A stretch of 64,000 nt of DNA from an uncultured Gemmatimonadaceae bacterium (GCA_963829055.1 CAWHHI010000009.1:128001-192000), one strand, 5' to 3'; shown: positions 991 through 64,000, counted from the first letter of the stretch. Numbers and translations are program-made. Notes: generated from the letters alone by a model not told the origin.

Positions 991-1052
991 GAGTGAACCT
1001 CTCGTTGGTGATACAGGCGGGATGCACCGAACCTGCCTAACGACGACGATGG

Positions 1053-3456
1053 TCAGGGCACAGGCAGCTTGCGCCGCCGCATGTTCGCGAGCGGGTCCGC
1101 GACGCCGGTGAACGTGTACTCCGGCACCTCGTAACCCATCAGATTCCGCACGAAGTAGTCGAAAATGAGGCGGCTCCCGTACCACCCGCCGCTCGAGTGC
1201 CCCTGATCCGGAAACACCATCATGTCGAATCGCTTGCCCGCATCGATCAGCGCCGCAGCAACGCGAATTGTCATCGACGGGTGTACGGCTTCGTCCAGGT
1301 CACCGTGCACGAGCATCAGCTTCCCGCGCAGGTTGTTCGCGAGGAGGTAATTCGCGTCCCCCTCGTAGTTGTCCTTGCCCGTAGAGTCCTTGTGCAGCAT
1401 GCCACGCCACGACTCACCGACGATGGTGTGCTCGCTGCGATCGTCGTGGTTGCCGGCGAACGCCACACCGACCTTGAAGAAGTCGGGATAGCGGAGCATT
1501 CCGACAGTCGTGGAAAGTCCCCCGCCCGACAAGCCGTACAAACCGACCTTGTCCAGGTCGATCCACGAGAACCGCGCGCCTAACTGCTTGATCGCCTCCA
1601 CGTGGTCGGCGAGGGTGGCTTCGGCATATCGACCCTGGTACTGCGTCCGATAGTAGTTCCGTATTGCCGGAGATGGATCACGAACGCCGCGCGGCTGAAT
1701 CTGCAGGACGATGAAGCCGAGCTCCGCCAGCGCCTGCTGCTCGCTCGACGGGCCGATGAAGCCCCATCCTCTGATGGCGCCAAGCGGCATCGGGTAGATG
1801 TGATCGACGACGGGGTACCGCTTGGTGGAGTCGAAGTTGGTCGGCTTGTAGACGGCCGCGTAGAGCGGCGCACCATCGCTCGCGGTCAGCGTGTGGATCT
1901 CGATCGGCTTCCACCCGAGCGACGTCGACGTCGAAATGTCGGTGCGCTCGAGCTCGCGGATGACGCGTCCGTTGTCCGTCGATCGTACGACCGTCACCGG
2001 CGGCACGTCGGTCGACGAATAGGTGTCGACGAAGAAACGTCCGTTCGGTGAGATCGTGGTAGTGTGATCGCCTGTCTCCGGGGTCAGCAGCGCGAGACCG
2101 GAGCCGTCAGCGCGCATCCGGTACAACTTCGTGTGTCCCTTGAACGTGTTCGCCTCGCGCCCGTTCCCACGCACGAAGAGCGTGCTCCTGGTGCTGTCGA
2201 TCGCGGCGTCGGTCACGTTCCACGCGCCCTCGGTGACTTTGCCGATGAACTTCCCGGTACTGTCGTACCTGTAGATGTGTGAAGCTCCGTCGCGCTCCGA
2301 GTACCAGTACACGTCGTTGCCACGACTCAGGCGCCAGATGCCGCTGCCCACGACGTACTCACTGATGGCACCGTAGCGGAACGTGTTGCTGTCCGAGACG
2401 ATCCGTCGTGCTGCCCCCGTCCTGGCGTCGGCCGTCATCAGGGCAAGCCTGTTGGGGCCGCGGTTGCTGCTCAGGAAGAAGAACCGGTCCGACGTCGGTG
2501 CCCACTGTGCGAACAGTGCCAATGCCGCGGTCTCGGTCATGCCGCCGCGCACCCACGGGATCTGCTCCGTATTCACGCGGATCTTCGACTTGTCCGTGAT
2601 GTCGATGACGTAGAGGTCATGGCGCTCGACGACAGAGTCGCTCGGAATCGCTTGCGGCACCGCGAAGAGCTCGGGTCGAATCGTCGTCGATGAGATGTAG
2701 TAGAACTTCTCTACGCCGCGGACGTCCCAACGCATGACCACCATCTTCTTCGAGTCCGGCGACCACACGACCATCGGAAGACGCGGCTCTCCGGTGCGCC
2801 TCAGGCTGATGGACTGAAACGTGCCAGCGCGTCCGTAGGCCCACTCGGCGGACCCGTCAGTCGTTAGGCGCGTCTCGCACGAGGCGCCGCTCGTGCACCC
2901 GACCTGCCGGATGTAGAATGTCGTTGTCGCGCACGAACGCGTCCCACTTCTCATCGGGCGATCGACGCATGCCGCGGTCCGTCCGTGGCTTGGCCGCCAC
3001 GGGTGAGCATTTGTGCGTCCCGACGTCACAGGACAGGCGCTTCGCGCCGACGGTGAAGCTCACCAGCTTCTCATCCTTCGACAGCTCGAAGTCCGCCAGC
3101 GTTAGGCGTCGCGATTCGACGACCGAATCGAGTGCGGCCGAGATCCCTTGGGACAGCAGCCCACGGTCGACGAGCAACCGCCTGGTGTTCCGGGCGGGAT
3201 CGACCAGGTATCGCTCGGTCCCCTCCGGCGTCTCGACGGCATACCAGAACCGAGAGCCGTCAGCGAGCCAGCGCACCTCGACGCGGTTGCGGTACATCTT
3301 GTCGGCCGCGCGGTGCTGCATGAAGCGTTCGGCGCGCGCGTATGCCGATGCCGGCAGCGTGTCGAGAAATCGTTGCGCTTGCGCCGGGAGCGCGACGACG
3401 AGGTGCATCGCGCCGATCGCGCCGAGGGAAAGGGCGTAGAGTCGCAATGAACGCAT
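1053..3456 (-). CDS. S9 family (DPP-IV-like) secreted serine peptidase, frameshifted near 2915
   Basis: N-terminal part (MRSLRLYALS...AQAQ signal) lies in ORF 2857-3678 and joins ORF 1053-3029. Catalytic motifs GLSGGG, HGDLDEAVH, DQGH; WSPDS propeller repeats. Confidence 0.9.
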
Positions 3457-3681
3457 CCTGCGGTCGATGGGGACCCTGCTTGGGCGGCGAATATGCGTCG
3501 ACGCGTTCGCGCAGGCCAGCCGTACGCCAAGCATGCGCGGGCACGAATGGACGACCAGTCTTGACGGTTGTGACTCACGAACGGATCTTCGCCTCGAAAC
3601 GATCGGCCGACGCGCACTCCCCTTCGTTCGTCGCGACGTGTGTCGCGCCGACTCGCTCCCACTCAGTGCCAGGAGCATCCT

Positions 3682-6600
3682 ATGGAGCTCGCTTCAGTGT
3701 TGAAAGCGGCCTTGCTACCGCTCTCCCTCGCGTCACCGTCGGCGCGGCCAGGCACCCCAGAGCACCCGAACTCCTTTGTCTCGGAGGCGGAGATTGCTCG
3801 TTTCGCAGGAACCATCAGAGGGCGCGTCGTCGAGGCGGGCTCTGGCGCACCCATCGTCGGTGCCACGGTCACCGTCGGCGGCACACGCCTCGGTGCGATG
3901 TCGGGCAACGACGGTCGGTACACCATCACTCAGGTCCCGGCAGGGAGCCAGGTGCTCACGGTGCACATGCTCGGCTTCGCGCCGAAAAGCGACACGGTCT
4001 CCGTCACGGACAACGGTGAGGTCACGGGCGACTTCACCCTCCAGCGCTCGGCGTCGCAGCTCTCGGAGGTCGTCGTCACGGCGACCGGTGATCAGCGGAA
4101 GGTGGAGATCGGTAACGCGGTGGCGACGCTGCGCGCCGATTCGCTCGTTGCGGTAGCGCCGATCACCTCCGTCGGCGACATGCTTCAGGGCCGCGTCGCG
4201 GGGCTGCTCACGTTCGCCAATGCCGGTATGACGGGCTCAGCACCACGCATCCGCATCCGCGGCTTCAACTCGCTGTCGCAGCCTAACAACCCGATGATGA
4301 TCGTCGACGGCACGCGCGTCGACAACACGACCGGCGCGGGCAACGGGGGCGGCACGAACGTCCAGTCGTACGGCTGGACCGCCGGATCCGTGACCGCGAT
4401 GAATCCCGAGGAGATCGAGTCGGTCGAGATCGTCAAGGGACCCTCTGCGGCAACGCTGTACGGAACGGATGCAGCGAACGGTGTGATCGTCATTCGGACC
4501 AAACGCGGCACGGCCGGATCGCCGAAGTGGAATCTCTACGCTGAAGGCGGTCTCATTCCCGGTCCGACGACGTGGAACGACAATTACTACGCGTTTGGCA
4601 AGAGCCCCACGGGCCAGGCCATGCAATGCGTCAACCTCGCACGCGCGGCGGGACAGTGTACGCTGGACAGCGTCAGCGTCTGGAGCCCGATGAGCGATGC
4701 TCCGAGCTCACCGGTGGGGACAGGCAATCGTCGGCAACTCGGTGCTCAGGTCTCCGGCGGCACGCAGCAACTGCGGTACTTCGTAGGCTCCGACTGGGAG
4801 CGTGAGCGCGGTTACCTCGAGCTGCCGGACGTCGAGATCGAGCGCCTCAAGGCCGAGCGCGGTACCGGCGAGATCCCGGATGAACAGATCCACCCGAACT
4901 TCCTGCATCGTACGGCGCTCCGTGCCAACGGGTCGGCGATGCTCGGCGCGAAGGGCGATCTGAACCTCTCGAACAGCGTCCAATTCCAGAAGAGCCAGAT
5001 CCCCCTGAACACCGTCTTCACCGACGCGGCGTGGGGCTCGGGCTACAAGGACGCGTGGGATGGCTGGGGCCAGCAGCGTCGGCCGGGCGAAACGTTCGCG
5101 GTGCGCTCGGCGGAGAAACTGTTTCGCATCACCAGCTCGGCCAACGGAAACTTCGCGCCAACCTCGTGGTTGACGACTCGGGCCACGATCGGCGTGGATG
5201 CCAGCTCGGTGTTCTCCGACAACCTGCAGCGTCGCGGCGAAGGAGGAACTGCGCTCGCACCGAGTCTCGGACGCCGGCTCGACGTGCGGTCGACCACGAT
5301 GCTCATCACGGGCGACGCCGGTGCGACGGCGAGCTTCAGCCTAACGCCGTCGATCGCGTCCAAGACCTCCGTCGGCGCCCAGTACAATCGGCGTGACCGC
5401 GGGATCACGACCGCCGTCGGCACCAACCTGCCGCCGGGCTCGAGCACGCTCGCCGGTGCGGCCACGGTCACCAACAGCGAGGCGACCATCGAATCGGTCG
5501 TGGCTGGCGGCTACGTCGAGCAGCAGATCGCGCTGAACGATCGACTGTTCCTCACGGGTGCGCTGCGGGCCGATGGCGCGAGCACCTTCGGTGAGAACTT
5601 CAAGACCGCGTACTACCCGAAGGGCAGTGTCTCGTGGGTCCTCTCGAGCGAGAGCTGGTTCCCGCAGACGAAGGCGATCTCGAGCCTCCGCTTCCGCACG
5701 GCGTACGGCTCGTCAGGCGTGCAGCCGCCGGCCGACGCCGCGCTCACGCGCCTCCAGTTGCAGACGGTGTTCGTCAACGGCACGACGGGTTCCGGCGCGC
5801 AGCTGCAGACGCTCGGCAACCCCGATCTCGCGCCCGAGCGTACGACGGAGCTCGAAGGTGGCATCGACATCGACTTCTTCGATGGTCGCGTGCGCCTCGA
5901 GGCAACGGCGTACGAGAAGCGGAGCACGGATGCGCTCGTGCAGCGATCCTATCCGCGCTCGGCGGGGCTGATCGCGACCGGCCAGCTCGACAACGTGGGT
6001 CGCGTGCGCAACCGCGGGGTGGAAGGCGTCCTCAACGCGATGGTCTTCAGGACTGGCGGTACGGAGCTCAACGTCTCGCTGAACGGCTCGATCAATCACT
6101 CCAAGCTTCTCGAGCTCGACGAGAGCACGCGTCCACCCGAAGACCGCTTCATCAAGTTCGTGCAGGGCTACCCGCTCTTCGGGATGTGGGATCGAAAGAT
6201 TCGTGGCTACAGTGATGCCAACAACGACGGCGTCCTGCAGATCAGTGAGGTCCAGGTCGATGATTCGGTCACGTTCATCGGCGAGACGAACCCTACGAAT
6301 CTGCTCACGTTCAGTCCGAGTCTCTCGCTGTTCAACGGGACGATTCACCTCACCTCGATGATCGTCCACAAGGGCAACTTCATTCAGACGAACTTCTCGG
6401 AGCTGAACAAGTGCGCGAGCTTCGGGGCGTGCAAGGCGCGCAATGACCCCAAAGCATCGATCGCGGAACAAGCGCCGTATGCGGGGTTCGCGGGTTCGAC
6501 CTTGACGTATGCCGGCTACGCCGAGGACGGCACGTTCACGCGCTGGGCGGAGGCGTCGATCGTGTGGGATGCGACTCGCCAGTTCAAGCGCGCGCTTGGC

Positions 6601-6803: not shown

Positions 6804-8096
6804 ATGACCTCACGAATTTCCCGGCTCCCCATAGCCGCCGCACTGACGGTGACGTTAGGCTGCTCGTCGCTGACCGACGTGGACTCGCCGGACGTGGTTC
6901 AGCCGGAGCAGCTGAACAATGCCGCCGGTGCCGAGGCGCTGACGACGGGTGCGCTCGCTTCGATCATGTCGCCGTTCATGACCTTCGCGTACAACACGTC
7001 GGTCTTCAGCGATGAGATGAAGCTCGCGACGGCGTTCAATTCGTTCGCGGACATCGACTTCCGAACGCAGTCGCTGACCTTCAACGAATACGGCCCGACC
7101 CTGATGCACCGGGTTCGGACGCAGACGCAGCAGGCCATCGACTCGCGCAAGGAGTTCGCACCAACGCCGCGCGCTCGCATCGGCCAGCTCTTCGCCACGA
7201 AGGGGCTCGCCGAGCTGTTCCTCGGCGAAACGAGCTGCAATGGCACGCCGCTCACCGACATCGAAGGGACGGACCCGATCTTCAGTGGCCCGTTGACGAG
7301 CGACAGCATCCTGAAGGTTGCGATCACGAACTTCGACTCGGCGGTCGTGTACGCGGCGGACAGTGCGCGCGTGCTCAATCTGGCGAAGGTCGGACGCGGC
7401 CGCGCGCTGCTGGATCGCGGGCAGTACGCGCAGGCAGCAGCGGCGGTGGCCGGCGTGCCAACCAACTACGTGTACAATGCCGAAGCGACGTTGGCGGTTG
7501 CGAACCAGATCAACCTGATCTGGAATGGCAACAATCTGAAGACGGCAACAGTAGCTGAACGCGAAGGCGGCAACGGGTTGAACTTTGTGACCGCCGCCGA
7601 TCCGCGCGTCCCCACGATCGCAAATGGCGTGGGCGGCGACGGCGTGACGAACGTCTTCATCTTCGGGAAGTATTCCGGGCAGGCATCCCCGATCCCGATG
7701 GTCACCGGCGTCGAAGCGCGGCTGATCGAGGCAGAAGCCGCGTTGCAGGCGAACCGAAACGATACGTCGCCCACTGGCAACGGCTGGTTAGGCATCCTGA
7801 ACAACCTGCGAGCGACGGCGATCACGCCAGCGATGGCTCCGCTGGCGGATCCGGGAAGCTTCGATGCACGCGTGAACCTGCTCTTCCGCGAGCGCGCGTT
7901 CTGGTTGTACGGAACGGGTCACCGCATGGGCGATCTGCGTCGCCTCCTCCGACAGTATGGTCGCGCCGAAGCGCAGACGTGGCCGAAGGGACCGTACAAA
8001 GGTGGGGTCAGCTACGGGGACGAGGTGGTGTTCATCCTCACACTCTCCGAGCAGGCGAACCCGACCGTACGGACGTGCACCGACAAGAATCCGTAA
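6804..8096 (+). CDS. SusD/RagB-like lipoprotein
   Basis: Lipobox TLGC; EARLIEAEA and LFRERAFWLYGTGHRMGDLRR motifs; directly after the SusC-like gene, GAGGAG RBS. Confidence 0.88.
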   Translation: MTSRISRLPIAAALTVTLGCSSLTDVDSPDVVQPEQLNNAAGAEALTTGALASIMSPFMTFAYNTSVFSDEMKLATAFNSFADIDFRTQSLTFNEYGPTLMHRVRTQTQQAIDSRKEFAPTPRARIGQLFATKGLAELFLGETSCNGTPLTDIEGTDPIFSGPLTSDSILKVAITNFDSAVVYAADSARVLNLAKVGRGRALLDRGQYAQAAAAVAGVPTNYVYNAEATLAVANQINLIWNGNNLKTATVAEREGGNGLNFVTAADPRVPTIANGVGGDGVTNVFIFGKYSGQASPIPMVTGVEARLIEAEAALQANRNDTSPTGNGWLGILNNLRATAITPAMAPLADPGSFDARVNLLFRERAFWLYGTGHRMGDLRRLLRQYGRAEAQTWPKGPYKGGVSYGDEVVFILTLSEQANPTVRTCTDKNP

Positions 8097-8117: not shown

Positions 8118-8150
8118 ATAGGGGCGGGACCCGTTAGGTCCCGCCCCTAT
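8118..8150. terminator. Hairpin between convergent genes (terminator or REP-like)
   Basis: ATAGGGGCGGGACC-CGTTA-GGTCCCGCCCCTAT, a perfect 14-bp stem. Confidence 0.7.
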
Positions 8151-8729
8151 TTGCGCACTGCCTCGTGGATGACGATCGGCGTTACGAGGTTCTGGCCATT
8201 CGCCGGTTCGCTCTGAATGCGGCGGGCGACGTCGAGACCGCGCACCACGCGCCCGAACGCGGCGAAGCCCTGCCCGTCGGGGTTCCGCATGCCGCCGAAG
8301 TCCAGCGCGGGCTGCGGGCCGAGGCAGATGAAGAAGCTCGACGTCGCGCTGTTCGCGCCGGCGCGCGCCATCGAGATCGTGCCATCGAGGTGCTTCAGGC
8401 CGAGTCACCGACGTCCGCTCGAGCTCGATCGGTGGGAAGCCCTGGCCGCGTTTTTCGCGGCTCGCTCCCGCCTGGATGACCGTGATTCGGATCGAGTCGT
8501 TAGGCTGGTTGTCCGCGCGCACGACCCGGTAGAACGAGCCGTTCGTGAAGAAGCCACCATCGACGTACCGAAGGAAATTCTTCCCGGTGACCGGAGCGCG
8601 GATCGTGTCGACCTCCACCTCGATCTCGCCGCGCTCGGTCCGGAAGACTACGTGCGGCAGCGACTGCGCGCGGAGCGGGGACGCGACCGCCATCGCGGCG
8701 GCTAGCGCGGCGGTCAGGCCGGCACGCAT
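8147..8729 (-). CDS. Cyclophilin-type peptidyl-prolyl isomerase, exported; frameshift near 8405
   Basis: APVTGKNFLRYV, SFYRVVR, VIQAG, then in the other frame KHLDGTISMARAGANSATSSFFI and FAAFGRVV. Confidence 0.9.
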
Positions 8730-9362: not shown

Positions 9363-10766
9363 CTACGACTTCGTCTTCGCGGAGATCAGCGGCGCGGTCG
9401 GCAACGCGCCAAGGTCTACCACCTTGCCGTCCTTGATCACGGCGTTGACCCGCCGGTAGTTGCGTGCGCTCTCCAACGGGTTCGCGTCGAGGATCACCAC
9501 GTCGCCGATCTTCCCGACCTCGAGCGACCCGAGATCGCGACGCTTGTACGCGTACGCGACGTTGCTCGTCGCCGTCTTGAGGATCTCCATCCGGTCCATC
9601 CCGAGCTCCTCGAGCGCGTAGAGGGCGTTGAAGTGACCCTCGCCGAGCCTAACGCGGGGATCGATCGTGTCGGCGGCGATGGTGCGCGACTCGCTGCGCA
9701 GGACCGGATGCTCGATGCCGGCGTCGGTCGACACGAGAACCCGGATGCCGTGTGTAATGAAGTTCCGGATGTTCTCGTGCGAGATCTTGTAGAACGGGGT
9801 CAGTACACCCTCCGGCATGTTCTTCTCGATCGCCTCGCGATGCCGCTTCGTCACCGACAACACCGACACCGAAATGTCCTTCGCCTTGATCTTCTTCAAC
9901 GTCTCCTCGGCGATCGTATGAGTCGGCCCCGACATGTCGCCGTGCGTGAGGATGTCCACACCGGCTTCGACGGCAAGGTCGACGCTCTCGGGCGAGGTCA
10001 CGTGTGCCTGGACCGTTTTTCCCGCACGATGCCCTTCCTCGACGATCGCCTGCTGCGCACGCGGCGAGAACGTCAGGAAGTTCATGTCGACGTGGCCGCT
10101 CGCCCCGTACTTGAGGAAGTCCACGCCGCTCGCCGCATATTTCCTGATCGAGTCGCGCACCTCCTGGGGGTACATCCATAGAAGCTTGCGGCCGGTGCCG
10201 AGCTCCCACGCCTCGTTGATTCGCTTGGCGAAGGCCTTGCTCACGAAGGGCGCCGCAGTGGCGCGGAAGTCGGCCGCGAGGGGACCGTCGAACCCGATGA
10301 TGTTCCCGGCGAGGTAGATCCGGCTGCCCTGCTGCTGGCCCGAGTTGATCATGTCGCGCGCCTTGATGAGCGCGTCGCGCGGTCCCCAGGTGTCGAAGAC
10401 GGTCGTCAGCCCGCTCTTGAGCGCGATCTGCGCTCCCTCGATGGCCACCTCGTGGTAACGCCCCTCGTACTTGATGAGCGTCTCGAGGTCGAGGTTGAGG
10501 AAGAGGTGCAGGTTGGCGTCCATCAGGCCGGGGATGACGTACTTCCCGCGCGCGTCGATGGTGCGCATGGACGCGGGCACCTGAACCGTCCCCGCCTTGC
10601 CGACCGCGGAGATGCGGCCGTTGGTGATGACCACGACGCCATCGGTGATCGGCGCCTTCCCGGTGCCGTCGATGACGGTGGCACCGGTGACGGCGATGTT
10701 CTGCGCCGCGAGTGCAGTGGCGCTGATGAAGAGGATGGCGGCGCTGCGAAGGAGTGAATTGGGCAC
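9363..10766 (-). CDS. Secreted amidohydrolase-family protein
   Basis: GATVIDGTG, GKYVIPGLMDANLH, VQAH, ILTHGD, STDAG, GSLEVGKIGDVVILDANPL. GTG start with GAGGT RBS. Confidence 0.9.
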   Translation of the reverse strand: MPNSLLRSAAILFISATALAAQNIAVTGATVIDGTGKAPITDGVVVITNGRISAVGKAGTVQVPASMRTIDARGKYVIPGLMDANLHLFLNLDLETLIKYEGRYHEVAIEGAQIALKSGLTTVFDTWGPRDALIKARDMINSGQQQGSRIYLAGNIIGFDGPLAADFRATAAPFVSKAFAKRINEAWELGTGRKLLWMYPQEVRDSIRKYAASGVDFLKYGASGHVDMNFLTFSPRAQQAIVEEGHRAGKTVQAHVTSPESVDLAVEAGVDILTHGDMSGPTHTIAEETLKKIKAKDISVSVLSVTKRHREAIEKNMPEGVLTPFYKISHENIRNFITHGIRVLVSTDAGIEHPVLRSESRTIAADTIDPRVRLGEGHFNALYALEELGMDRMEILKTATSNVAYAYKRRDLGSLEVGKIGDVVILDANPLESARNYRRVNAVIKDGKVVDLGALPTAPLISAKTKS

Positions 10767-10812
10767 GCTGTACCTCGATTGGCGTGGGCCTGCTGCTGCA
10801 AACGATCCGTGC

Positions 10813-12960: not shown

Positions 12961-13453
12961 TCAGGGCTTGAGCGGCCCGAGCGGGCTCGGCGCGCATCCG
13001 GTCGGCTCTGCCGTGTACGTCACTGTCGCGATCTTCCAGCCTGACGACCCGCGAACGAGCGTGAACGCATCCACGCCGCAGTGCACGAACTGCCGGTTAC
13101 GGTGGATATCGTACGGCGCCCACACGATCGCGATGGCGCCATGCACCAGCACCGTCGGCTGCCACATGCGCTCGACCAGTGTGTCTCGCATGGTGGCGAG
13201 CTGGCGCACGAAGCCCTCGAACTCGCCGCGCGACACGACCACGCTGTCCGGCCGATACCGCACCGCGTACTGGATGCCGTCCGCGAGCTGAACGCGCCGT
13301 ATGGCGGCCGTGTCGCGCGCTGTCATCGCGCGGAAGAACTCGTTCACGATCGCGACGACGGAATCCTGACTCGCCCGGGACGCCTGCGCGGTGACTCGCG
13401 CCGGCGTTAGGCAGAGGACGACTCCGATGATGGCTCGGATGGCTCGAATGCAT
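12961..13453 (-). CDS. Exported NTF2-like (SnoaL/DUF4440-type) protein; start uncertain, possible indel just after ATG 13453
   Basis: IVNEFFRAMTARDTAAI...AIVWAPYDIH...HCGVDAFTLVR...WKI; hydrophobic signal IIGVVLCL. Confidence 0.75.
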
Positions 13454-14108: not shown

Positions 14109-14118
14109 CCGAACCGCG

Positions 14119-14701: not shown

Positions 14702-14705
14702 ACGC

Positions 14706-25345: not shown

Positions 25346-25406
25346 TCGCGCGACGAGCATAACGCGCGATCGGCGTCGCGTGCGATCGGCCGAACGCAGG
25401 CCATGC

Positions 25407-38281: not shown

Positions 38282-38316
38282 CTGCTCCTTCCTATGGCCT
38301 CCTTCCTGAGGCCTCG

Positions 38317-45701: not shown

Positions 45702-45705
45702 CGCC

Positions 45706-53380: not shown

Positions 53381-54742
53381 ATGACCACGCACGCCATGTC
53401 AATCCGGCGCCCGCGGCCCTATGGCCTGTACGCCATCTGCTTCGGATTCTTCCTCGTGTTGTTCGACACGAGCGCGGTCAACGTCGCGGTCGGCGCCATG
53501 CACCGCGAGTTCGGCGTGATGAGCGACCTGCAGTGGATCGTGAACGCGTACACGATCGTGTTCGCGAGCCTCGTGCTGACCTGCGGCGCTCTCGGCGACC
53601 GGTACGGCGCGAAGCGCCTCTACCGGCTCGGACTCGGGTTGTTCACGGCGATGTCGCTCTCCTGTGCGCTGTCGCCGAGCGTCGGGTTCCTGATCGCGAT
53701 GCGAATGATGCAGGGACTGGGCGCGGCGATGATGCTGCCGGCGTCGCTCGCGCTCCTGAGCCACGCGTACCCCGACCCGCGTGCGCGGGCGCGCGCCGTG
53801 TCGTTCTGGGCGGCGATCGTGAGCCTGGGGTTCGCGGCCGGTCCAGCGTTAGGCGGCGTGTTCACCAGCTACTTCGGATGGCGGAGCATCTTTCTGCTCA
53901 ACGTGCCGATCGGCATCGTCGCGCTGCTCATGGTGACGGCGTTCACGGACGAGACCGACCGTGCAACGGCGCGGCCGCTCGACTGGGCCGGCCAGCTCAC
54001 CGTCTCACTCGCGCTCTGGGCGCTGAGCTACGCATTGATCGAGGCGGGGAATGGCGGCTGGGCCGCGCCGCGCGTGCTGGCCGCGTTCGCCGCGACCATC
54101 GTGCTCGCCGGCGTGTGCGCTTTCACGGAGCGACGGAGCCGATCGCCGGTGTTTCCGCCTGCGCTCTTCTCGCGCCCCGCGTTCGTCGCGTGCGTTGCCG
54201 CCGGGGTCGTGATGAGCCTCGGCGCGTACGGCATCCTGTTCGTCGAGTCGATCTACCTGCAGAGCGTCCGCCACCTGAGCGCGCTGGCGGCGGGCGCGAT
54301 GATCGTGCCGCTCACGGTGCTCCCGACCGTGACCACGCGGCTGATCGATCGCTATCGCGCGGACATGCCCTTCAAGCCGCGGCTCGTGGCGGGGCAGATC
54401 ATCGGGTTGGCGGGGGCGGGAGCCATGGTGCTGTCGGTGCGATATCCAGCAACCGCAATCATCCTGATCGGGTTCGGGCTGCTCGGCGTCACGTTAGGCT
54501 TCGTGACCCCGGCGATGACGACCGGTGTGCTCACGACGTCGCCGGCGGCGATGTCGGGGCTGGCGTCGGGGATTCTGAATGCCGGCCGTCAGGTGGGCGG
54601 CGCGATCGGCGTGGCGCTCATGGGCACGCTCGTGCAGATGCATCAGGGCCGCGGCATGATGGTGTCGTTCAGCGTGGCGCTGGTGTTGTTCGGCGTCATT
54701 GCGGTGGGCGCGCAGCGGGCGATCCCGGAGCCGGCGTCGTAG
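53381..54742 (+). CDS. MFS drug:H+ antiporter (DHA2-like)
   Basis: FDTSAVNVA, QWIVNAY, GALGDRYGAK, GPALGG, WRSIFLLNVPIG. Confidence 0.92.
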   Translation: MTTHAMSIRRPRPYGLYAICFGFFLVLFDTSAVNVAVGAMHREFGVMSDLQWIVNAYTIVFASLVLTCGALGDRYGAKRLYRLGLGLFTAMSLSCALSPSVGFLIAMRMMQGLGAAMMLPASLALLSHAYPDPRARARAVSFWAAIVSLGFAAGPALGGVFTSYFGWRSIFLLNVPIGIVALLMVTAFTDETDRATARPLDWAGQLTVSLALWALSYALIEAGNGGWAAPRVLAAFAATIVLAGVCAFTERRSRSPVFPPALFSRPAFVACVAAGVVMSLGAYGILFVESIYLQSVRHLSALAAGAMIVPLTVLPTVTTRLIDRYRADMPFKPRLVAGQIIGLAGAGAMVLSVRYPATAIILIGFGLLGVTLGFVTPAMTTGVLTTSPAAMSGLASGILNAGRQVGGAIGVALMGTLVQMHQGRGMMVSFSVALVLFGVIAVGAQRAIPEPAS

Positions 54743-54937
54743 CCGTTCGCGCGGTTCGTTGGTGGGTCGAAACCGCCACGAGCCTAACGCCAGATGACGA
54801 CGGTTGATACGACCACCGACCGGTCAGTCTGCATGCTGGTCGCGCCCGTTCATGAATTGCCGTCCGGTTTGAGGTGCGTACTGCGTTACATGCGCTGATC
54901 CACATGCGCGTCGCATCTCTCATCTCAGGAGCAATTC

Positions 54938-56558
54938 ATGCGTTGGTTTTCGTCCCAGGTCGGCACCTTGGTCCTCGCGCTCTCCGCGGTGGCGCTCGGC
55001 GCCTGCGCGGATCGCCCCAAGCCCACCGAGGCTTCGCCGCCTGCCGGACCCGACCCACTCATCATCATCGGCGGCGGTGGCGGCGACGAAGTCCCGCCGC
55101 CTCCCGCGCCCATTACCATCGGGTCGCTGACCAGCGCCGATTTCGAGGTCGCGATCGACGGACCCTCCGTACCGTACACGGCGACGCTGAACAATCCGGG
55201 ACCCCAACGCCCGAACGTGGCGCTCCAGGGCTGGATCACCCAGGGAGCGACGCGCCGCGCCGCCGGCGGCCAGCTCGTCACGTGCGGTCTGTCCGCGGGC
55301 GTGATGCCGATCGGCAACTGCACGGCCGCAGGGCCCGATCGTGGCGTCCAGCACGACTGCGGGGAGCGGGGCGTTCGTCCCCGGCAGCGCGACATTCGAG
55401 CTGCAGCTGAAACAGGATGGGGTGGTCGTGGGCTCCAAGACCGTCGGCGTCATCCTCGTGCCTAACAGGCCGAGGATCTCCGGCGTGACCCTGAGTGCCG
55501 ACTCGGTCATCATCGGCGGACCGGGGATGACGTACACGACGTCGCTGCAGAGTCCGGGGCCAACCCGGTCGAACGTGCGGCTCCGCATCTATCTCGGCCA
55601 GGCGACGACGCATACGCTCGTGAGTGACGCGCTCGTCGCGTGCGGAGGCGCGTTAGGTGACGTGCCGAAGGGCGCCTGCACGATCCGCGGCGGATTCACA
55701 ACGCCCGATGCGACAATCAAGCCCGGTCAGGCGGGCGTCGAGATGCAGCTGGTCGACAACGGGACGGTGCTGGAGACGCGGACCACGTCGTGAAGTCCGT
55801 GTCGAGCACGAGGCTCGGCGTCCTGCGTCCGGGTCGTGACTCCGATCGCGCTCGGCGGCTCGAGCGTGCCGTACACGCTGACGCTCCAGAACGTGGGACA
55901 GCTCCGCTCCGGCATGTACCTCAGGACCGATATTTCTCAGGCGAACACCGAGCTCGCCCAGCACGGACCCGCGCCGTAACCTGGACATGGGTCTCGTCGA
56001 TTGTGGAAGCGGACCGGCGTGTTGCCGGTCGGCGGCTGCACGGTGTCGGGCACGTTCAAGGCATCCAACACTGACCTCGGAATCTCGGGCTCGGGACATT
56101 GAAGCTGGGTCAGGCGTTCTTGACGGTGTCCCTGCTGGACTCGACCGGGTACTTCCAGGAGACGAAGTCGGTGTTCGTGACGATCATCCCGAACACGCTG
56201 ACGATCGCGGGCGTGAGCGCGAGCTCGTTCACTCCCGTCATCGACGGCGCGAGCGTTCCGTACACCGCGTCGCTCCAGAATCCCGGAGTGAGCCTCTCGA
56301 ACATCTTCGTGATGGCGTCGGTCGTCCAGGGCGCAACGCGACGCGACGCCGGCGGGACGCTGGTGAACTGCGGGAGCGGGTCGGGCGTGCTGCCGACCGG
56401 CACGTGCGCGGTGCCGAGCACGTTCAGCGGCGTCCAACACGCTCGGTGGAACCGGAACGCTCGTGGCGGGTCCCGCGACGCTGCAACTGCGAGTCATGCA
56501 GGGACTGACCACGGTGCTCTATACGATGAACCTTCCGGTGACTCTCACGACCCCGTAG
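54938..56558 (+). CDS. Lipoprotein of four tandem ~115-aa beta-rich repeats; several frameshifts
   Basis: ALGAC lipobox; four repeats of IxGxxxxYTxxLxxxG...CGxxxGxxPxGxC reconstructed across frames; ends VTLTTP*. Confidence 0.75.
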
Positions 56559-56751
56559 GGAGCTGTAGGGAAGAGCCCGCAGGGCGCGGCTCTACACGGG
56601 CCGAGCGGTGCCTAACGTGCGGCGGCTCGCCTCGGATCGTCGGTGATGAACCAGGGACGGTGGCTATCGGCCACCGTCCCCTGCTCGGCAAGCAGCCGAA
56701 GCACACGCACATCGGCTGCTCCTCACCCCGACAGGCAGCCGCACCGGTCCA

Positions 56752-59430
56752 CTACTTCTGACGCTTTTCACGCATCCGCTCACGCAACTCGTACTTCCAG
56801 TCGTGGGCGACGACGATCTGATCGTTAGGCCCGACGGCCTGCAGCAGCGCGAAGGACTTGCCGTCGGGCGACACGTCGTAGTTCGCGTGTTGCGGAACGT
56901 TGAGCAGGTAGTTGCCTTCGAACATTGGCGTCCGCGCCGTCACGGCGAAGTCCGGACTCGTGCGAATCGTCGCGGCGTGGAGTCGACCGTTCGACACGTA
57001 AAAGATGCGCTTCCCGTCGCGCGACCACACGGGCGCCATGCCTCCCGTCGGCGTGACCTGGTAGATCGCCCCGGTGGGCGGGAACGGCTGCACGTACACC
57101 TGCAGGGTACCGTCCTTGTTCGAGCCGTACGCGACCCACTTGCCGTCGGGTGAGAACTTGGGCGAGATCTCCGCCGCAGGTGTGGCCTCGATCGGCTTGC
57201 TCGTGGTGTCGCCTTCGAGCCGGCGATAGAGAATGTCCACCGGTTGCGTGGGGGTCGAGCGCCAGTACACAAGCGTGCGGCCGTCTGGGCTGATCACGCC
57301 CGCGTTGACCGTTTCCGGAGCGCGCTCGGCCAGCTCGCGGACGCCGCTGAAGTCCGAGTTCCGCCACCAGAGCGAGCTGCCTCCCGAACCGCTCGACGCG
57401 TACAGCACGCGTTTCCCGTCAGGGGTCCACTCCGGGCGCGAGTTGCGCTCACCCTCGGAAGTGAGCTTCGTCGGCGTTCCCGACGCGATGTCGTGGATCC
57501 ACACGTCGCTGCCCCTGCTCGACGCGATCGCGAGCGCCAACCGCGATCCGTCGGGCGAGAACCGCGGGGCGGCGTAGTCGCGCGGTTCGGCGAGGAGGAC
57601 GCGTGTCCGCCCCGTCACATCCGAGAGCACCACCTCGCTGGTCCTCGCCGCGCTCACGTACGCGAGCGATCCACTCCGTGAGACCGCCGCGCGAACCAAC
57701 CCTGATTGACTGATGTCCACCTGATCGACGACCTGAACCGGACGGCCTGTCACTCGGTGCGCCGCGACGTCGAACGCAACGGCCATGATCGCGCCGGCCG
57801 ATGTCCCGTAAATGAGGTAGCCGTCGACGACACCAATGGGCGATGCGCCACCGATGTCCAACACGGTCGCCCGCCCGGTGCTCAACGACATGACACCGAT
57901 GCGGGACGTCTGCATGCTCCCGCGCCAGCTCAGATACACGACCGTCTCGCCATCATCCAGCACGCGAGGACTTCGCTGCCCGCGCTCGCCGTCAACACCC
58001 GCGCCGCGCCCGATGGGCCGGAATTGGCCACCCGCGGACGGGACGGTCATCAACCTGTCCTTCACTGATGCGATGATCACGTCGCCGGGCGCCCACGCCG
58101 CGCCCAGCACCGGAGCGCCTTCCGCGACGTCGACTGCGGGGCCGCCGGCGAGCGGCACCCTTCTCACAATACGTGCGCCCGGGTTCGAAAAGCCGAGCGA
58201 TGTCCCGTCAGGCGAGAAGAACGGTCCAATCGCGGGATCCGCCTCGCGGATCACCCGCGTGGCCAGTTGCCCAACTTCGCGGATGGCGAGCCGTTGATCG
58301 CCTGCCTCGGTCCGCAACGTGAACGCGATGAACCTTCCGTCGGGCGAGATCGCGATCTGTGTGCCTGGTGCAACGTCATCGCGCGGTCCGCCAGGGGCGA
58401 TCGTGAATCGCACGGTGCGTCCATCGATCTCGTCAGGCCCGCGTGTCCAGCCCCACGCGGCCAGCGCCACGCCGATCCCGGCCAGGGCGAGCGCACCGAG
58501 GACGATGGGATCGCGCGAGCGTCGAGCCCCGGACCTCGCGCGAGTCCCTAACGCGGCGGGTAGGGAAGACGCATCCAGCCGAGCGGGATCGGCAACGAGT
58601 CTTCCCTGCAGGGCCTCGGCGAACTCACGCGCGGTCGCCCACCGATCGGCTGGCAGCTTCTCGAGCGCCCGCTCGATCGCTGTCGCGGCGTACGCGGGGA
58701 CGTTAGGCCGGACGGTGCGGATGCCACGGGGCCGCTCGGTCAGCACGCGCGCGATGACCGCCTGCATCGTGCTGCCGGTGTGCGGTGGGTCGCCGGTCAG
58801 CATCTCGTACGGTCACCGCGGCGAGCGAGTAGATGTCGCTGCGCGCGTCGATCGTCTGGTCGCCCGTGGCCTGCTCGGGGCTCATGTACTGCGGCGTACC
58901 TAACGACAGCGCCGGTCTGCGTCATCCGCGCGCCTCCGGCATTGCTCACCGCCAGCGCGATCCCGAAGTCGGCGACGACCGGCTGCCCCGCTTGCAGCAG
59001 GATGTTCTCCGGCTTGAGGTCGCGGTGGACGACGCCATGCGCGTGCGCGTAGTCGAGCGCGCCGGCGACCGCCACCGCGATGCGGACGGCCTCGTCCACC
59101 GGAAGCTGTTTCTCGCGATCGATGCGCTGCCGGAGGCTTTCCCCGTCGACGTACGGCATCACGTAGTACGAGCAGCCCGTTCGCGTCGCCGGAGTCGAAC
59201 AACGGCAGGAGGTTCGGGTGCTGGAGGTTCGCGGTGACGCGGATCTCCGCGAGGAAGCGGTCGACGCCGAGGACGGCGCCGAGCTCCGGGTTGAGGAGCT
59301 TGAGCGCGACGGCGCGGCGGTGGCGGATGTCGCGCGCGAGGTACACGGTCGCCATGCCACCGCGGCCGATCTCGCGCTCGATGACGTACCGGTCCGCGAC
59401 CGCCGAGGTCAGTTCGCTGGGAATGCTCAC
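56752..59430 (-). CDS. Ser/Thr kinase + TM + TolB/PD40 beta-propeller; frameshifts near 59170, 58905 and 58810
   Basis: GRGGMATVY, HRDLKPEN, DFG, YMSPE; repeated SPDG/FSPDG. Confidence 0.9.
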
Positions 59431-59544: not shown

Positions 59545-60966
59545 GTGACGCTGCGCATCGCCTTCCTGCTGCTTTCGCTTCTCGCCACCGCGCTGCCCGC
59601 TCAGGAGCGCGACGTCGTCGTCACCGGCGGCTGGCTCTTCACGTCGACCGGCAACGATCGCATCCGCAATCCTGGCATCCTGATTCGCGGCGGCAAGATC
59701 CTGCGCGTCGGCGGCGACGTCTCGATCGCGGCGCCTAACGCCGAGCGAGTCGCGGTCGCCGATACGGAGACGGTGATACCCGGCCTGTTCGACCTCCACG
59801 CGCACTACGCGATAGAGCTCTTCGGCGCCGGCCGTAAGGATGAAACCGCTGCGTACCCGTCGCTGTTTCTCGCGAACGGTGTCACGGCGACGTTCCCGGC
59901 GGGCGAGATGGATCCGAACGTCATGCACGACCTGCGCGTCCGGATCGAGAATGGGGCCGAGCCCGGACCGCGACTGCTCAACTCCGGTCCGTACTTCGGC
60001 ACGGCGCGGCCGGGGTGGGATCGCGACATCACCGCGCAGCAGATCTACGACGAGGTGGATCACTGGGCGGAGCTCGGCGTCAAGGGATTCAAGGCGAAGG
60101 GCATCACGCCTGAGGAACTACGCGCACTCATCGAGCGAGCGCACTTTCACGGGCTGACGGTCACCGGCCATTTGGATAGTGGCAATCGCAACAGCGTGAA
60201 CCCGCGCGACGCGATTCTCATGGGGATCGACCGCATCGAGCACTTCATGGGCGGCGACGCATTCGTGGCGGACAAGTCCGCGTACGCGTCGTACGAGCAC
60301 ATGACGTTCGCCACGCCGGAGTTCAAGCGCATCGCGCAGCTCTACAAGCAGGAGCACGCGTACTTCGACGCGACGCTCAGCGCGTACGGCTACTACGGAA
60401 AGAAGGATCCCGACGTCTTCACGTATTTCGTCGACGAGAAGAAGTTCCTCACGCCGTACATGCGGTCGGTCATCGACGCGCGTGCGCCGCGGCCGGTGAA
60501 CGCGCAGTTCGAGAACATCTACTGGACGAAGCGGAAGGAGATCAAGGCGTTCTACGACGCCGGCGGCGGCGATCTCATCACGTTAGGCACCGATCATCCG
60601 AGCTGGGGCGAGTTCTTCACGCCGTTCTCGGTCCACCGCGAGCTCCAGTCGCTCTCACGCTCTGGTATTCCGAACGCCGCCGTGCTTCGGATCGCCACGA
60701 TCAACAGCGCACGCGCCATCGGACTCGGCGATCGGCTCGGGTCGATCGAGGTGGGGAAGTGGGCGGACCTCGTGGTCGTTCGCGGCAATCCGCTCGCGGA
60801 CATTCGTCGCACGCGTCTGCCGCGTCTCGTGATCAAGGCGGGGCGAGTCTACGATCCCGCCGCTCTCATGACGTCGGTGGAAGGAAAGATCGGCCCGATG
60901 AGCGCTGCGGATACCGCCGCCTGGGCTCCGACACCGCGTCGGGGCCGCCCAGGAGCCGATCAATGA
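59545..60966 (+). CDS. Secreted amidohydrolase (canonical HxH)
   Basis: PGLFDLHAH, VTGH, RIEH, GTDH, GSIEVGKWADLVVVRGNPL. Confidence 0.92.
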   Translation: MTLRIAFLLLSLLATALPAQERDVVVTGGWLFTSTGNDRIRNPGILIRGGKILRVGGDVSIAAPNAERVAVADTETVIPGLFDLHAHYAIELFGAGRKDETAAYPSLFLANGVTATFPAGEMDPNVMHDLRVRIENGAEPGPRLLNSGPYFGTARPGWDRDITAQQIYDEVDHWAELGVKGFKAKGITPEELRALIERAHFHGLTVTGHLDSGNRNSVNPRDAILMGIDRIEHFMGGDAFVADKSAYASYEHMTFATPEFKRIAQLYKQEHAYFDATLSAYGYYGKKDPDVFTYFVDEKKFLTPYMRSVIDARAPRPVNAQFENIYWTKRKEIKAFYDAGGGDLITLGTDHPSWGEFFTPFSVHRELQSLSRSGIPNAAVLRIATINSARAIGLGDRLGSIEVGKWADLVVVRGNPLADIRRTRLPRLVIKAGRVYDPAALMTSVEGKIGPMSAADTAAWAPTPRRGRPGADQ

Positions 60967-61194: not shown

Positions 61195-61620
61195 TCCATC
61201 GCGTCGTTGTCGTCGACGGCAAGCCGACGAAGGCGGTGAGCCCGAACGGTCTGGCATTCAGTCCTGACGGCTCGCACTTCGCGTACGTCGAAGGTCAGAG
61301 CAACCGCGCGGTCGTCGTGGATGGTGTCCAGCGCGTGCCGGCGAATGTTTGCGCACCAGCCGGACGATGTCCCGGCCGAGTTCGTGTTCAGCCAGGATGG
61401 AAAGCATCCCGCCTTCGCGCCGGACGCGATCGGGACGTACGACATCACCTTCACGCCCGACGGGAAGCATCTGATGTGGCTGGGCGGCCGCGGTGAAAAC
61501 CGGCTGCGCGTCTACGTCGACGGAGAGCCGGTGCCCGAGTCGGATCAGCCGGCTACGTCACGACAGTCCGTGGAGACGTGGTGGAACATGGGCGCGGACG
61601 GCGTGCTCACGCCTTTTTCC
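61195..61620 (+). pseudogene. Fragment of a WD40/TolB-like propeller gene
   Basis: FSPDGSHFAY, FSQDGKH, FTPDGKHL and VVVDG/VYVDG across two frames; no start or signal peptide. Confidence 0.5.
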
Positions 61621-61880
61621 GATTCACTAGTCGATCGGCGGAGCCGACGTTATCGCACGCGTTTACCGTCGGCATCCCACACCTGGACAGGATCGAGCTC
61701 CTCGTCAACTCCGCGACTGGGAGTCCGCGCGTCGTGAACGGGCAGGAAATAAGCGCTGCGGGCCGGATCGAGTGCGAGCTCCGATTCTGGCGCCCGGTCG
61801 TGCGGCATCCCATCTTCTGCGCGGCAGGCGACCGCCATGCACCAGTAAGCTGACCGAGCGATGCGACCACCGGGCCGACG

Positions 61881-64000
61881 ATGAGCGCGCCCGCCGCCGA
61901 ATTTGTACAAGCGGTCGTCGACCGCTACCGTATCGAGCGCGAGCTCGGTCACGGCGGCATGGCGACGGTCTTCTCGCCGAGGACCTCCGGCACGGCCGAC
62001 CCGTCGCGATCAAGCTCCTGCACGCGGAGCTCGGCGCGTGGTTAGGCGTCGAGCGGTTCCTCTCCGAGATCCGGATCACGGCGCGGCTGCAGCATCCGAA
62101 CATCCTGCCGCTACTGGATAGCGGTGACGCGAATGGGCGCCTGTACTACGTCATGCCCTACGTCCCGGGCGAGACCCTGCGAGCGCGCCTCGACCGGGAG
62201 CGTCAGCTCCCCGTGCCTCAAGCGATCCGCATCGCGAAGGACGTAGCGGCGGCGCTCGCGTACGCCCATGCCGTGGGGATCATTCACCGCGACATCAAGC
62301 CCGAGAACATCCTGTTCGGCGCACCTAACGCGGTAACGCCGCCGCCCGTCCTGCTCGCGGACTTCGGCATCGCCCGATCGACCGACGCGAATGCCGATCG
62401 GCTGACGGGCACCGGCATGTCCGTGGGGACGGCTGCCTACATGAGCCCCGAGCAGGCGACGGGCGAGCGCGAGCTCGATGGACGCACCGACATCTACTCG
62501 TTAGGATGCGTGCTGTACGAGATGCTCGCAGGGGAGCCGCCGTTCAGCGGCGCGAACCCACGGGTCATCCTGTCGAAGCAGCTGACCGATCCGGTGCGCC
62601 CGGTGAGCCGGCTCCGCGAGAGCGTTCCGCCGCATGTGGACGCGGCGCTGGCGATCGCCCTCTCACGCTCACCCGCCGATCGGTTCCCCGACGTCGCCGC
62701 GTTCGCTGCGGCGCTCGACCGGGCCGATTCGCGGCCGGTAGGATCCGCTAGCGCGAGTCAGGCGGCGGGGCGCCGGCGAGTCATGCGCGTTGCCGGCCTC
62801 GTTGCCGGCCTCGTTGCCGGCGTCCTTGGCGTCGCCGCCGCCGCGCGGCTCTGGATGTCGAGGCCGAGCGTGGCGTTAGGCATGCCGGTCGTTCGCATGC
62901 AGCGATTCACGACACTCGCCGGCGATACGGCCAGCGCCTATCTCGCCGCGACCCTCGAGCAGGACGTGACGACTGCGCTCGCGGGCACAGGCGTCGCCCG
63001 CGTCTTCGTCATGAATTCCACGCTGGAGTCGGGATTCGCCGTCGCCGGGACCGCGACCCGCGTCGCGGACTCGGTCGAGTTGCGGCTCACGGTGTCGAAG
63101 GAGCCGACCGGGGAACTGGTCGGCACGAAGATCGTTAGGCAGCCGGTCGGCCGGTCGCACGAGTTACCGGAGGCCGTGACCGACTCGATTCTCTCGCTGC
63201 TCGGCCGCCGACGTCGAGTCGCGACGTCGCGTTCGATTCCCACGAAGGATCCCGTCGCGTACGATCTCTTTCTCAAGGGCCGATACCAGACCGACCGTCG
63301 TACTGAGATCGGGACCCAGCGAGGCGTGGCCCTGTTCCGTGCCGCGGTGGCGCGCGATTCGGCCTTCGCAGACGGCTGGGCCGGGCTCGCCCTGGCATTG
63401 CGGCAGGCAAATCTACGGGGGTACCGAATTCCAAGCGTTCCTCGCAGCGCCCTCATCGCGGCGATCGTCGACGCGAGCGAGCGCGCGCTCGAGGCCGACA
63501 GCACCCGCTCCTACGGCTGGATCGCCCGCGGGATGACGCTCCGGGACATCGAGCCGAGCTCGCGGCGCAATGCGATCCTCGCCTACCAGCGCGCGATCGC
63601 GCTCGATTCGAGCAACGCCGACGCCTGGCACTTCTACGCTGTCGCGTGGGATGACAGCCTCGAGCCGGGACGCGCGCGTGTCGCGTGGCAGCGGGCGCTG
63701 CGTATCGATCCGAGCCACCGACTGTCACTGGGGTTCCTGGGCCAGCACTTCAACTGGATGCGTCAGTTCGACAGCGCCGCTCGGTGGGCCGACAGCGGTC
63801 GGCGAATCGACCCGACGAACCTGCTCGTGCGCCAACAGCTCGGGTTCGCGAAGCTGCACCTCGGCGACACCGCCGCCGCGGCCGAGAACTTTCGGGCGAC
63901 CATCCAGATCGGGAAGGGACCGGACGAGGTAGTCGGGTGGGTCGGCCTGTCGGACGTCGCGCTTCGGGAGGGCGATCGCCGGGGTGCGGATAGCCTGTTC
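61881..64000 (+). CDS. Ser/Thr kinase + TM + TPR (3' end outside window; indels near 61975-61995)
   Basis: DRYRIERELGHGGMATV, HRDIKPEN, ADFG, YMSPEQA, AYDLFLKGRY, TPR-like helices. Confidence 0.88.

Follow-up and report, generated by a model that had tools for sequence, protein, structure and literature searches.

The octamer CGTTAGGC is a DNA-level signal under fixation bias in an uncultured member of the Gemmatimonadaceae, where it recurs throughout the 64-kb stretch of DNA analysed here (G000:C9:128001-192000, referred to below as the window) and throughout the source genome, G000. The word has a protein-like footprint, is written in lineage dialects, turns over between genera and is absent from foreign DNA. 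We tentatively read it, with a probability of about 0.4, as an uptake-sequence-like tag that would be spread by biased DNA acquisition and read by a putative protein. Hyper-abundant genome words are rare, and every one that is understood, such as uptake sequences and Chi, has led to a mechanism by which DNA is exchanged or repaired. The word described here occurs in two abundant, barely cultured soil phyla, overrides codon choice and some amino acids, and shares its spelling with the recombination core of the integron, the principal gene-capture system of bacteria. No description of CGTTAGGC as a genomic signal was found in a full-text search of the literature outside subscription journals, which brought up only primers and unrelated studies. 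In the excerpted text of a paper on Ssn nucleases and the Neisseria NTS repeat (PMC11893778), the matches to 'attC' are the letters ATTCCC.

Abundance and reading frames

The window contains 53 exact copies of CGTTAGGC, against 1.17 ± 1.18 (maximum 5) in 100 dinucleotide-preserving shuffles, and 74 GTTAGG cores (46 on the plus and 28 on the minus strand), against 6.41 ± 2.51 under shuffling, while G+C stays at 0.64-0.70 per 4 kb. The 21 cores that are not exact (15 CGTTAGGD and 6 DGTTAGGC) mismatch at one end base only. Open reading frames (ORFs) were called with a simple codon-score finder, whose coverage is only 69.5% of the G000 genome because many genes of the assembly are split by frame changes, so that assignments as intergenic are approximate. 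By these calls, 37 of the 53 exact words lie within ORFs, 5 provide an ORF stop codon and 11 lie between called ORFs. Within ORFs the word is read as NCG TTA GGC in 20 cases, NNG CCT AAC G in 9, NGC CTA ACG in 5 and NNC GTT AGG C in 3. A preliminary description of this DNA, made by eye, had given the same figures for exact words, one-end variants, cores and strands, all of them exact on recount, and the three frames (at 6853, 5339 and 24703) and seven intergenic places that it cited agree with the crude ORF calls.

The genome of G000 comprises 7,784,024 bases in 20 contigs, with 66-67% G+C and an estimated completeness of 86%. It holds 5004 copies of CGTTAGGC (2547 on the plus and 2457 on the minus strand), or one per 1.56 kb, compared with 297, 131, 102 and 258 expected under Markov models of orders 0, 1, 2 and 3. 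In a genome-wide count of 8-mers, a check that the preliminary description had called for, CGTTAGGC ranks first by z-score and the ranks just below are taken by its own overlapping neighbours. Models of orders 4 and 5 expect 2916 and 4755 copies because sub-words of CGTTAGGC dominate the counts on which they rest: TTAGG occurs 7392 times in the genome, 5004 of them within the word.

Codon usage does not account for this excess. The 5929 called ORFs contain 3054 copies, 22-fold more than the 137 ± 12 (maximum 157) obtained in 20 within-gene synonymous-codon shuffles; the enrichment therefore persists in the codon-preserving shuffle that had been named beforehand as the refuting test. The word also imposes TTA Leu codons, as had been claimed, since 1242 of the 2635 TTA codons of G000 ORFs lie in it, together with 571 of 3480 CTA codons. 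Each strand of the word has a stop triplet in one frame, which leaves four possible readings, every one of them occupied in G000 ORFs (1239, 396, 567 and 842 copies); the word provides 190 of 752 TAA and 160 of 1544 TAG stop codons. Called ORFs contain 3044 of the 5004 copies, and the flanks have background composition beyond ±2 bases. The marks of repetitive extragenic palindromes or miniature inverted-repeat transposable elements, namely conserved sequence past the core and a mostly intergenic location, are not found for the word in G000.

A base-calling or polishing artefact is ruled out, as the word is present in all seven genomes of the genus, six of which are assemblies of 260-1170 contigs, and at orthologous places. 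These seven genomes hold 2501-5112 copies each, against 255-373 of a reversed-word control. Contigs from four public runs of four studies span word-holding stretches of window 30001-50000, and none of the 40 differences listed, out of 634 between these contigs and the window, falls inside a word; with 40 of 634 listed, the comparison has no power on population variation at words. A search of the window against Rfam gave no match at gathering scores.

Footprint, spacing and orientation

To describe the tolerance of the signal, we counted all 24 one-letter variants of CGTTAGGC in G000. Over-representation is strongest for CGTTAGGT (17-fold), TGTTAGGC (14.8-fold), CGTTAGGG (9.3-fold) and CGTTATGC (7.7-fold); CGTCAGGC shows a weaker excess (2.1-fold), weaker excesses are also seen for variants at both ends of the word, and variants changed at positions 2, 3, 5 and 7 are not enriched. 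This spectrum looks like a footprint with a strict GTTAGG core and looser ends.

Words tend to avoid each other in part of the lineages. Gaps below 300 bp make up 9.1% of the total in G000, against 17.8% expected, and the deficit of short gaps recurs in samples of the congener G002 and of G014, from another word-rich genus. As an example of this deficit, gaps shorter than 0.1 of the mean make up 2.7%, against 9.5% expected.

Orientation is close to balanced. On contig C16 the word lies on the leading strand in 158 of 269 cases (59%) on one arm and 209 of 396 (53%) on the other, that is, in 367 of 665 (55%) overall, and neither a Chi-type orientation skew nor the terminus-switching skew of FtsK orienting polar sequences (KOPS) is found there. 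This is the outcome of the polarity check suggested in the preliminary description. In 130 bins of 50 kb, the strand skew of the word shows no correlation with either GC skew (rho 0.15) or gene strand (rho 0.10).

Near 550 kb, C16 shows a sharp, terminus-like switch of GC skew and gene strand. The share of plus-strand genes per 50-kb bin falls there from about 58-99% to mostly about 0-30%, and an Xer-type recombinase match lies by the skew switch at 540.8-541.6 kb. The other large contigs of G000 are without such a gene-strand bias.

Conservation in place and turnover

Synteny of the window in congeners was too poor for an orthologue test, and other contigs of G002 were therefore used. We blasted 255 kb of this genome against G000 and kept the best alignments (155 kb at 65-90% identity), taking as controls the 8-mers 12-36 bases away in the same codon phase. 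Existing copies are retained longer than neighbouring sequence: 53 of 108 G000 words are identical in place in G002, against 90 of 619 control 8-mers (14.5%), a 3.4-fold difference that is present in every identity class. Where a word is found in one of the two genomes only, the other has 1-4 mismatches at that place; point changes at the site thus both create and destroy words. New copies form from near-matches, and they often bring in a rare codon or change an amino acid; an amino-acid difference accompanies 68% of 69 lineage-specific word windows and 50% of 616 control windows. The orthologue comparison had also been proposed in advance, and together with the 22-fold excess over synonymous shuffles and the four open frames it upholds the earlier claim that the word is maintained at the DNA level.

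Between word-rich genera little is shared. G000 has 16 of 122 words (13%) in common with G299, against 11.2% of controls, and 10 of 47 with G014, against 5.4% of controls. This low sharing indicates that density is maintained while sites turn over. A within-genus contrast of G235 and G292 with G288 was dropped, these genomes being too distant (66-73% DNA identity) to separate loss from gain.

Distribution and dialects

Among 101 sampled genomes of the family, the number of words forms a continuum from 4 to 6360; it is equal to or above that of the reversed-word control in 40 genomes and exceeds 1000 in 14. This tally includes three unpublished genomes, G330, which is one of the 40 enriched, and the word-poor G013 and G329. 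In the word-poor genomes of the family, CGTTAGGC is about ten times rarer than the control. A sample of 301 genomes of the phylum (with the unpublished G078, G117 and G198, all word-poor) shows enrichment beyond the family only in one genus of a second family, and one enriched genome belongs to a third family of the order.

We then scanned the genomes of 185,579 species for three words spaced 230-260 bases and obtained 106 stretches. The 80 that were listed come from Gemmatimonadaceae, from many Verrucomicrobiota and, as single arrays, from many other phyla; the latter we read as putative cassette arrays. The Verrucomicrobiota stretches belong to Chthoniobacterales and to metagenome-assembled genomes classed as 'Verrucomicrobiae', several of them with more than one match. 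Five Verrucomicrobiota genomes hold 1955-5186 words in 2.9-4.3 Mb, against 190-285 controls. Enrichment in three families of the order and in Verrucomicrobiota does not fit the suggestion, made in the preliminary description, that the word is specific to one lineage.

Lineage dialects exist, as for uptake sequences. In the Verrucomicrobial genome G375 the motif is the 9-mer TCGTTAGGC, with T at position -1 in 93% of GTTAGG sites, a position that is free in G000, G002, G014 and G299. Position 8 is strict in G299 (C in 96%), and the T1 excess over expectation is about 14-fold in G000, G014 and G375 and 28-fold in G299.

The top words of G288, a non-enriched genome of the sample, are tandem heptamer repeats of the families (AGAAAGC)n and (AGGGTTC)n, which form inverted pairs 50-130 bases apart (loci L015, L016, L019-L023, L027 and L028). 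As to habitat, a close relative is present in rhizosphere, soil and freshwater sediment: 20 public metagenome runs of 16 studies from these environments (2017-2025) hold 40-63% of the sampled 31-letter words of window 36001-46000.

Word-free DNA

The three longest word-free stretches of G000 (C6:5440-55037, C6:591808-623330 and C11:1-46789, loci L117-L124) are all contig ends. They encode housekeeping genes, among them aroC, trp genes, 3-deoxy-D-arabino-heptulosonate 7-phosphate (DAHP) synthase, FtsK, FolD, GreA and GlnA, many of which are split. Among the genes checked, six (aroC, FtsK, DAHP synthase, FolD, M17 peptidase and TrpG) have a second copy elsewhere in this genome, with an amino-acid identity of only 47-64%. 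The three stretches probably stem from chimeric joins or from contamination with DNA of another organism, and the word, as a sharp genome signature, would thus have exposed three chimeric contig ends in the G000 assembly.

The assembly probably also carries indel errors, which would lower estimates of its coding fraction. Split genes include the kinase fragments at window 21188-21868 and 58800-59162 and an aroC in two pieces, and one base is absent at window 39173 in all four public runs.

Relation to integron attC sites

The attC consensus, as given in an excerpt of PMC3053210, consists of a core R' GTTRRRY and an inverse core R'' RYYYAAC. GTTAGGC within CGTTAGGC fits the first of these, so the word does have a known look-alike, which the preliminary description had not recognised. 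In word-poor relatives, matches to the word are clustered, same-stranded and spaced every 500-600 bases, and the clusters of G021 are textbook attC hairpins that start with GCCTAACA and end with CGTTAGGC. A covariance model built from 20 sites gave 171 matches in 175 kb of array loci; alignment of the best 150 of the 171 left 111 non-overlapping sites from 12 relatives. Their R' box is CGTTAGGC in 72, CGTTAGAC in 17, CGTTATGC in 5 and CGTTAGGT in 3, and the complement of R'' is TGTTAGGC in 63 and TGTTAGAC in 18, a spectrum that is biased because the sites were found starting from exact words. As spelled in these alignments, CGTTAGGC with its leading C is the local attC core in relatives, and three of its tolerated variants also appear as attC boxes. 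The correspondence is partial: GTTAGAC, which ranks second among the attC variants (17 R' and 18 R'' boxes, each out of 111), has 24 copies in G000 (0.42-fold) and is not enriched, and CGTTAGGG, enriched 9.3-fold there, is not among the tabulated attC boxes.

The dispersed copies are another matter. The covariance model found no match in 1.35 Mb of word-rich DNA holding roughly 1270 words, and a search for partner boxes at the 6489 GTTAGGY sites of G000 gave 121 upstream against 95 downstream, the control. We therefore rejected the idea that the dispersed copies come from attC sites or cassette arrays; these copies are solitary, lack the hairpin and are spread over all contigs. Of 31 relatives, 18 have a match to the integron integrase IntI above cut-off, whether or not they are enriched. 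The word-rich G014 has a broken copy, and none was found in G002, G004 and G375. Among the five enriched Verrucomicrobiota, four encode IntI, with scores of 453-480 bits. The run of same-strand words next to the borderline IntI of G000 (C20:208008-208985) shows no attC-like folding, and the second IntI match of this genome (C4:2862-3170) is a truncated N-terminal remnant.

Two arrays deserve a description of their own. In locus L007 (G021:C80:1-7400), the attC sites are downstream of, and co-oriented with, a fragmentary intI, not diverging from it. Locus L273 (IMGVR_UViG_3300023212_000464:1-12499), classed as viral and with 42% G+C, starts with 14 same-stranded CGTTAGGC sites with conserved flanks, 110-840 bases apart, and this start looks like a cassette array. 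It is the sole match of the dense-word search among viral contigs; on DNA of phage size, the triple-word pattern has almost no power.

Candidate readers

No candidate examined by co-distribution (IntI, ComEC, the AddB homologue, Vsr, ComP_DUS and one pilin) tracks the word. No RecC was found in the 86% complete genome of G000, and the AddAB-like locus of this genome (C15:9162-16047) is broken into six pieces by frame changes. Nine of the 101 family genomes have an AddB homologue, including two of the 40 enriched ones, and a search with the G000 protein found none in G001, G014, G299 and G235. A Vsr-type endonuclease is encoded in 20 of the 101 genomes, including five of the 40 enriched ones; none was found in G000, G001, G014, G299, G235, G340, G344, G354, G359, G368 and G374. 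Pilus parts were searched in G000 only, which encodes a PilQ-type secretin, PilB/PilT-type ATPases and four pilin ORFs.

Transfer of a gene between the two phyla was sought in 346 kb of G375, where no match to G000 exceeds 68% identity. Of the 16 best matches that were checked, 14 are housekeeping or transport/metabolic genes; the two without a Pfam match are an ArnT/PMT-like glycosyltransferase and an ORF that overlaps it on the opposite strand.

Interpretation

We favour an uptake-type tag because molecular drive of this kind fits most features of the word. The word would be a recognition tag with a strict six-base core, GTTAGG, and looser ends, bound by a putative reader protein, and its abundance would be upheld by fixation bias, not by descent. 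The bias would most likely come from preferential acquisition of tagged DNA of kin followed by homologous recombination, by the molecular-drive logic proposed for the uptake signal sequences (USS) of Pasteurellaceae and the DNA uptake sequences (DUS) of Neisseriaceae. Acquisition could proceed by natural transformation through the encoded type IV pilus and ComEC, or by another sequence-selective transfer route. Since the tag is spelled like the attC R' core, cassettes would carry it automatically.

The word shares several features with USS and DUS. Like them, CGTTAGGC is a short, non-palindromic word present about once per 1-1.5 kb on both strands, within genes in several frames and between them, without replichore polarity, with dialects and with turnover at kept density; it is missing from foreign DNA and evenly spaced in part of the lineages, and competence machinery is encoded. 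The DUS of Neisseriaceae are read by the minor pilin ComP, and many of them are paired in terminators. By contrast, the present word has neither a ComP-family pilin (0 of 5 genomes) nor inverted-pair terminators, is known here from sequence alone, is common to two phyla, is identical to the attC core, and forms a continuum within a family instead of being a fixed clade trait. If the reading as an uptake or exchange mark is true, the word would link transformation to cassette traffic in soil and would be, as far as we know, the first uptake-type signal outside Proteobacteria.

Several observations weigh against an uptake tag. Uptake bias and transformation are, for these organisms, predictions from sequence only, and a pure uptake model leaves the integron core spelling common to two phyla unexplained. 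ComEC, found in 95 of 101 family genomes (in G000 at C16:789233-790018), is present whatever the word count, so the machinery does not co-vary with the word. One of the G000 pilins has full-length homologues in enriched and non-enriched genomes, including the non-enriched G008, and matches Verrucomicrobiota by its N-terminal helix alone. The ComP_DUS pilin family (PF16732), whose co-distribution had been put forward as a check in the preliminary description, is above cut-off in 0 of 5 enriched genomes; we know of no identified USS receptor, and this negative leaves room for a different one. The deficit of short gaps is not seen in the samples of G299 or of the Verrucomicrobial G375, so even spacing is not universal, and inverted word pairs show no excess in G000, whose words, unlike many DUS, do not form paired terminators. 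Lastly, 227 kb of G288 and 400 kb of G008, both non-enriched, yielded no alternative dispersed word, and enrichment therefore looks like presence or absence of the signal and not like a change of dialect.

We regard as rather unlikely that the words form a binding-site array for an abundant chromosomal protein (a nucleoid-associated factor, a loader, or the reader of a 'self' mark such as a defence or repair nuclease), with each site, or a minimum density of sites, kept by ordinary selection. The 3.4-fold conservation in place over neighbours between G000 and G002, the even spacing in G000, G002 and G014, the strict core with looser ends that resembles a protein footprint and the lack of the word in foreign DNA would all be expected of such an array. 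Its sites, however, turn over almost completely between genera, sharing with G299 being equal to the control (13% against 11%), a continuum from 4 to 6360 copies among close relatives would be odd for essential architecture, and no candidate protein was found.

The words might instead be integron-type recombination targets, used by IntI or a related tyrosine recombinase as double-stranded cores like attI or attG, in which case tagged chromosomal segments would behave as exchangeable cassettes, or cassette traffic would seed the word. This is unlikely in our view. It draws on the identity of CGTTAGGC with the GTTRRRY core, which is the R' box of 72 of 111 attC sites in 12 relatives, on the enrichment in G000 of the attC boxes TGTTAGGC and CGTTATGC (14.8-fold and 7.7-fold), on IntI in 4 of 5 enriched Verrucomicrobiota and on a spelling shared by two phyla that otherwise have little in common. 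The presence of IntI is nevertheless unrelated to enrichment, the two sets of tolerated variants differ (GTTAGAC on one side, CGTTAGGG on the other), and many phyla with putative CGTTAGGC-type cassette arrays have no genome-wide enrichment. Though spelled identically to the R' box of the hairpins in relatives' arrays, the dispersed words are solitary, double-stranded and set within ordinary genes, with no hairpin partner, array or link to intI.

No ordinary model explains an attC-core spelling in two phyla, and for this reason we also considered a cross-phylum exchange tag that would tie general DNA acquisition to integrons, an idea that we hold to be equally doubtful. A reader that first recognised the attC R' core would now select any DNA with that core, so that cassettes would be preferentially acquired, as would tagged chromosomal segments about 1.5 kb long, and word-rich chromosomes would in effect be cut into cassette-like exchangeable units. 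Such a reader could have passed between Gemmatimonadaceae and Verrucomicrobiota of the Chthoniobacterales type, or have originated separately in each from the same template, with dialects drifting afterwards.

A DNA methyltransferase target, or a repair bias dependent on sequence context that turns near-matches into the word, is very unlikely. Explanations of the methylation or repair-bias type have been discussed for HIP1 (GCGATCGC) of cyanobacteria, which resembles CGTTAGGC in being a hyper-abundant octamer that runs through genes against codon preference and whose reader and function are debated; HIP1 is a palindrome and CGTTAGGC is not, so a palindromic word of the HIP1 type was rejected. 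Words do arise in place by point changes from near-matches, and enrichment is a quantitative continuum among relatives, as a bias of this kind would have it. A bias acting site by site predicts no avoidance of neighbours, yet short gaps are deficient in G000, G002 and G014; Vsr is found in only 5 of 40 enriched family genomes; and the word is a fully specified, non-palindromic 8-mer.

A Chi-like signal restraining a helicase-nuclease on linear DNA is highly improbable: although CGTTAGGC is an over-represented 8-mer of Chi-like length and a protective signal on incoming DNA could also create drive, words such as Chi and KOPS (or the related architecture imparting sequences), which are read by the translocases RecBCD/AddAB and FtsK, are strongly skewed to the leading strand while CGTTAGGC is at 55% on C16, RecC was not found, AddB is not co-distributed with the word and its locus in G000 is frame-split, and one copy per 1.56 kb at a 17-49-fold excess is far above the density and excess of Chi in Escherichia coli.

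Copies in the window

The positions below come from a search of the window for the word and core patterns, combined with the crude ORF calls. Exact words read as NCG TTA GGC lie on the plus strand at 6853..6860, 18048..18055, 19727..19734, 20252..20259, 33378..33385, 33618..33625, 46313..46320, 46964..46971, 48191..48198, 51071..51078, 51494..51501, 53847..53854, 54492..54499, 60581..60588 and 62874..62881, and on the minus strand at 15495..15502, 28988..28995, 38620..38627, 41080..41087 and 41731..41738. The reading NNG CCT AAC G is found at 2862..2869, 11667..11674, 30214..30221, 37099..37106, 56823..56830 and 58701..58708 (plus) and at 24703..24710, 52001..52008 and 59733..59740 (minus); NGC CTA ACG at 3100..3107, 13405..13412, 40210..40217 and 43087..43094 (plus) and 5339..5346 (minus); and NNC GTT AGG C at 63133..63140 (plus), 9647..9654 and 27522..27529 (both minus).

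Stop codons are provided by the exact words at 10811..10818 (minus; ORF 10813-12813, minus), 14117..14124 (plus; ORF 14119-14553, minus), 25405..25412 (minus; ORF 25407-26258, minus), 38315..38322 (plus; ORF 38317-39171, minus) and 45696..45703 (minus; ORF 45369-45701, plus). Those between called ORFs are at 8498..8505, 16236..16243, 22462..22469, 36740..36747, 43920..43927 and 49720..49727 on the plus strand and at 1035..1042, 16604..16611, 21034..21041, 54782..54789 and 56610..56617 on the minus strand.

The variants lie within ORFs unless stated otherwise. CGTTAGGT is the most frequent, at 8132..8139 (between called ORFs), 11362..11369, 48059..48066 and 55651..55658 on the plus strand and at 29174..29181, 58898..58905 and 62323..62330 on the minus strand. 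CGTTAGGG occurs at 33173..33180 and 40714..40721 (plus) and at 38385..38392 and 58546..58553 (minus), and CGTTAGGA, always on the plus strand, at 35520..35527 and 62499..62506 and, between called ORFs, at 37777..37784 and 45105..45112. TGTTAGGC is confined to the minus strand (4281..4288, 55460..55467 and, between called ORFs, 36224..36231), GGTTAGGC to the plus strand (7786..7793 and, between called ORFs, 62040..62047), and AGTTAGGC is present once, at 1578..1585 (minus).

Other features of the window

An intergenic repeat at window 14602-14707 and about 38108-38260 contains CGCTCGGAATGACAA twice in tandem. Dozens of copies of 60-95 bases and 80-90% identity are found in 5 of 5 congeners searched, and words of this repeat are the next most over-represented in G000 after the neighbours of CGTTAGGC (GGAATGAC, 934 against 239 expected; ATTCCGAG, 909 against 253). 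The copy near 38.1 kb, which has no Rfam match, reaches 150-730x summed contig depth in four metagenome runs. The window also encodes two pairs of a PadR regulator and a MacB/FtsX-type permease (27674-30685 and 45369-48390), which sit among TonB-dependent receptors with a SusD-like partner and many peptidases.

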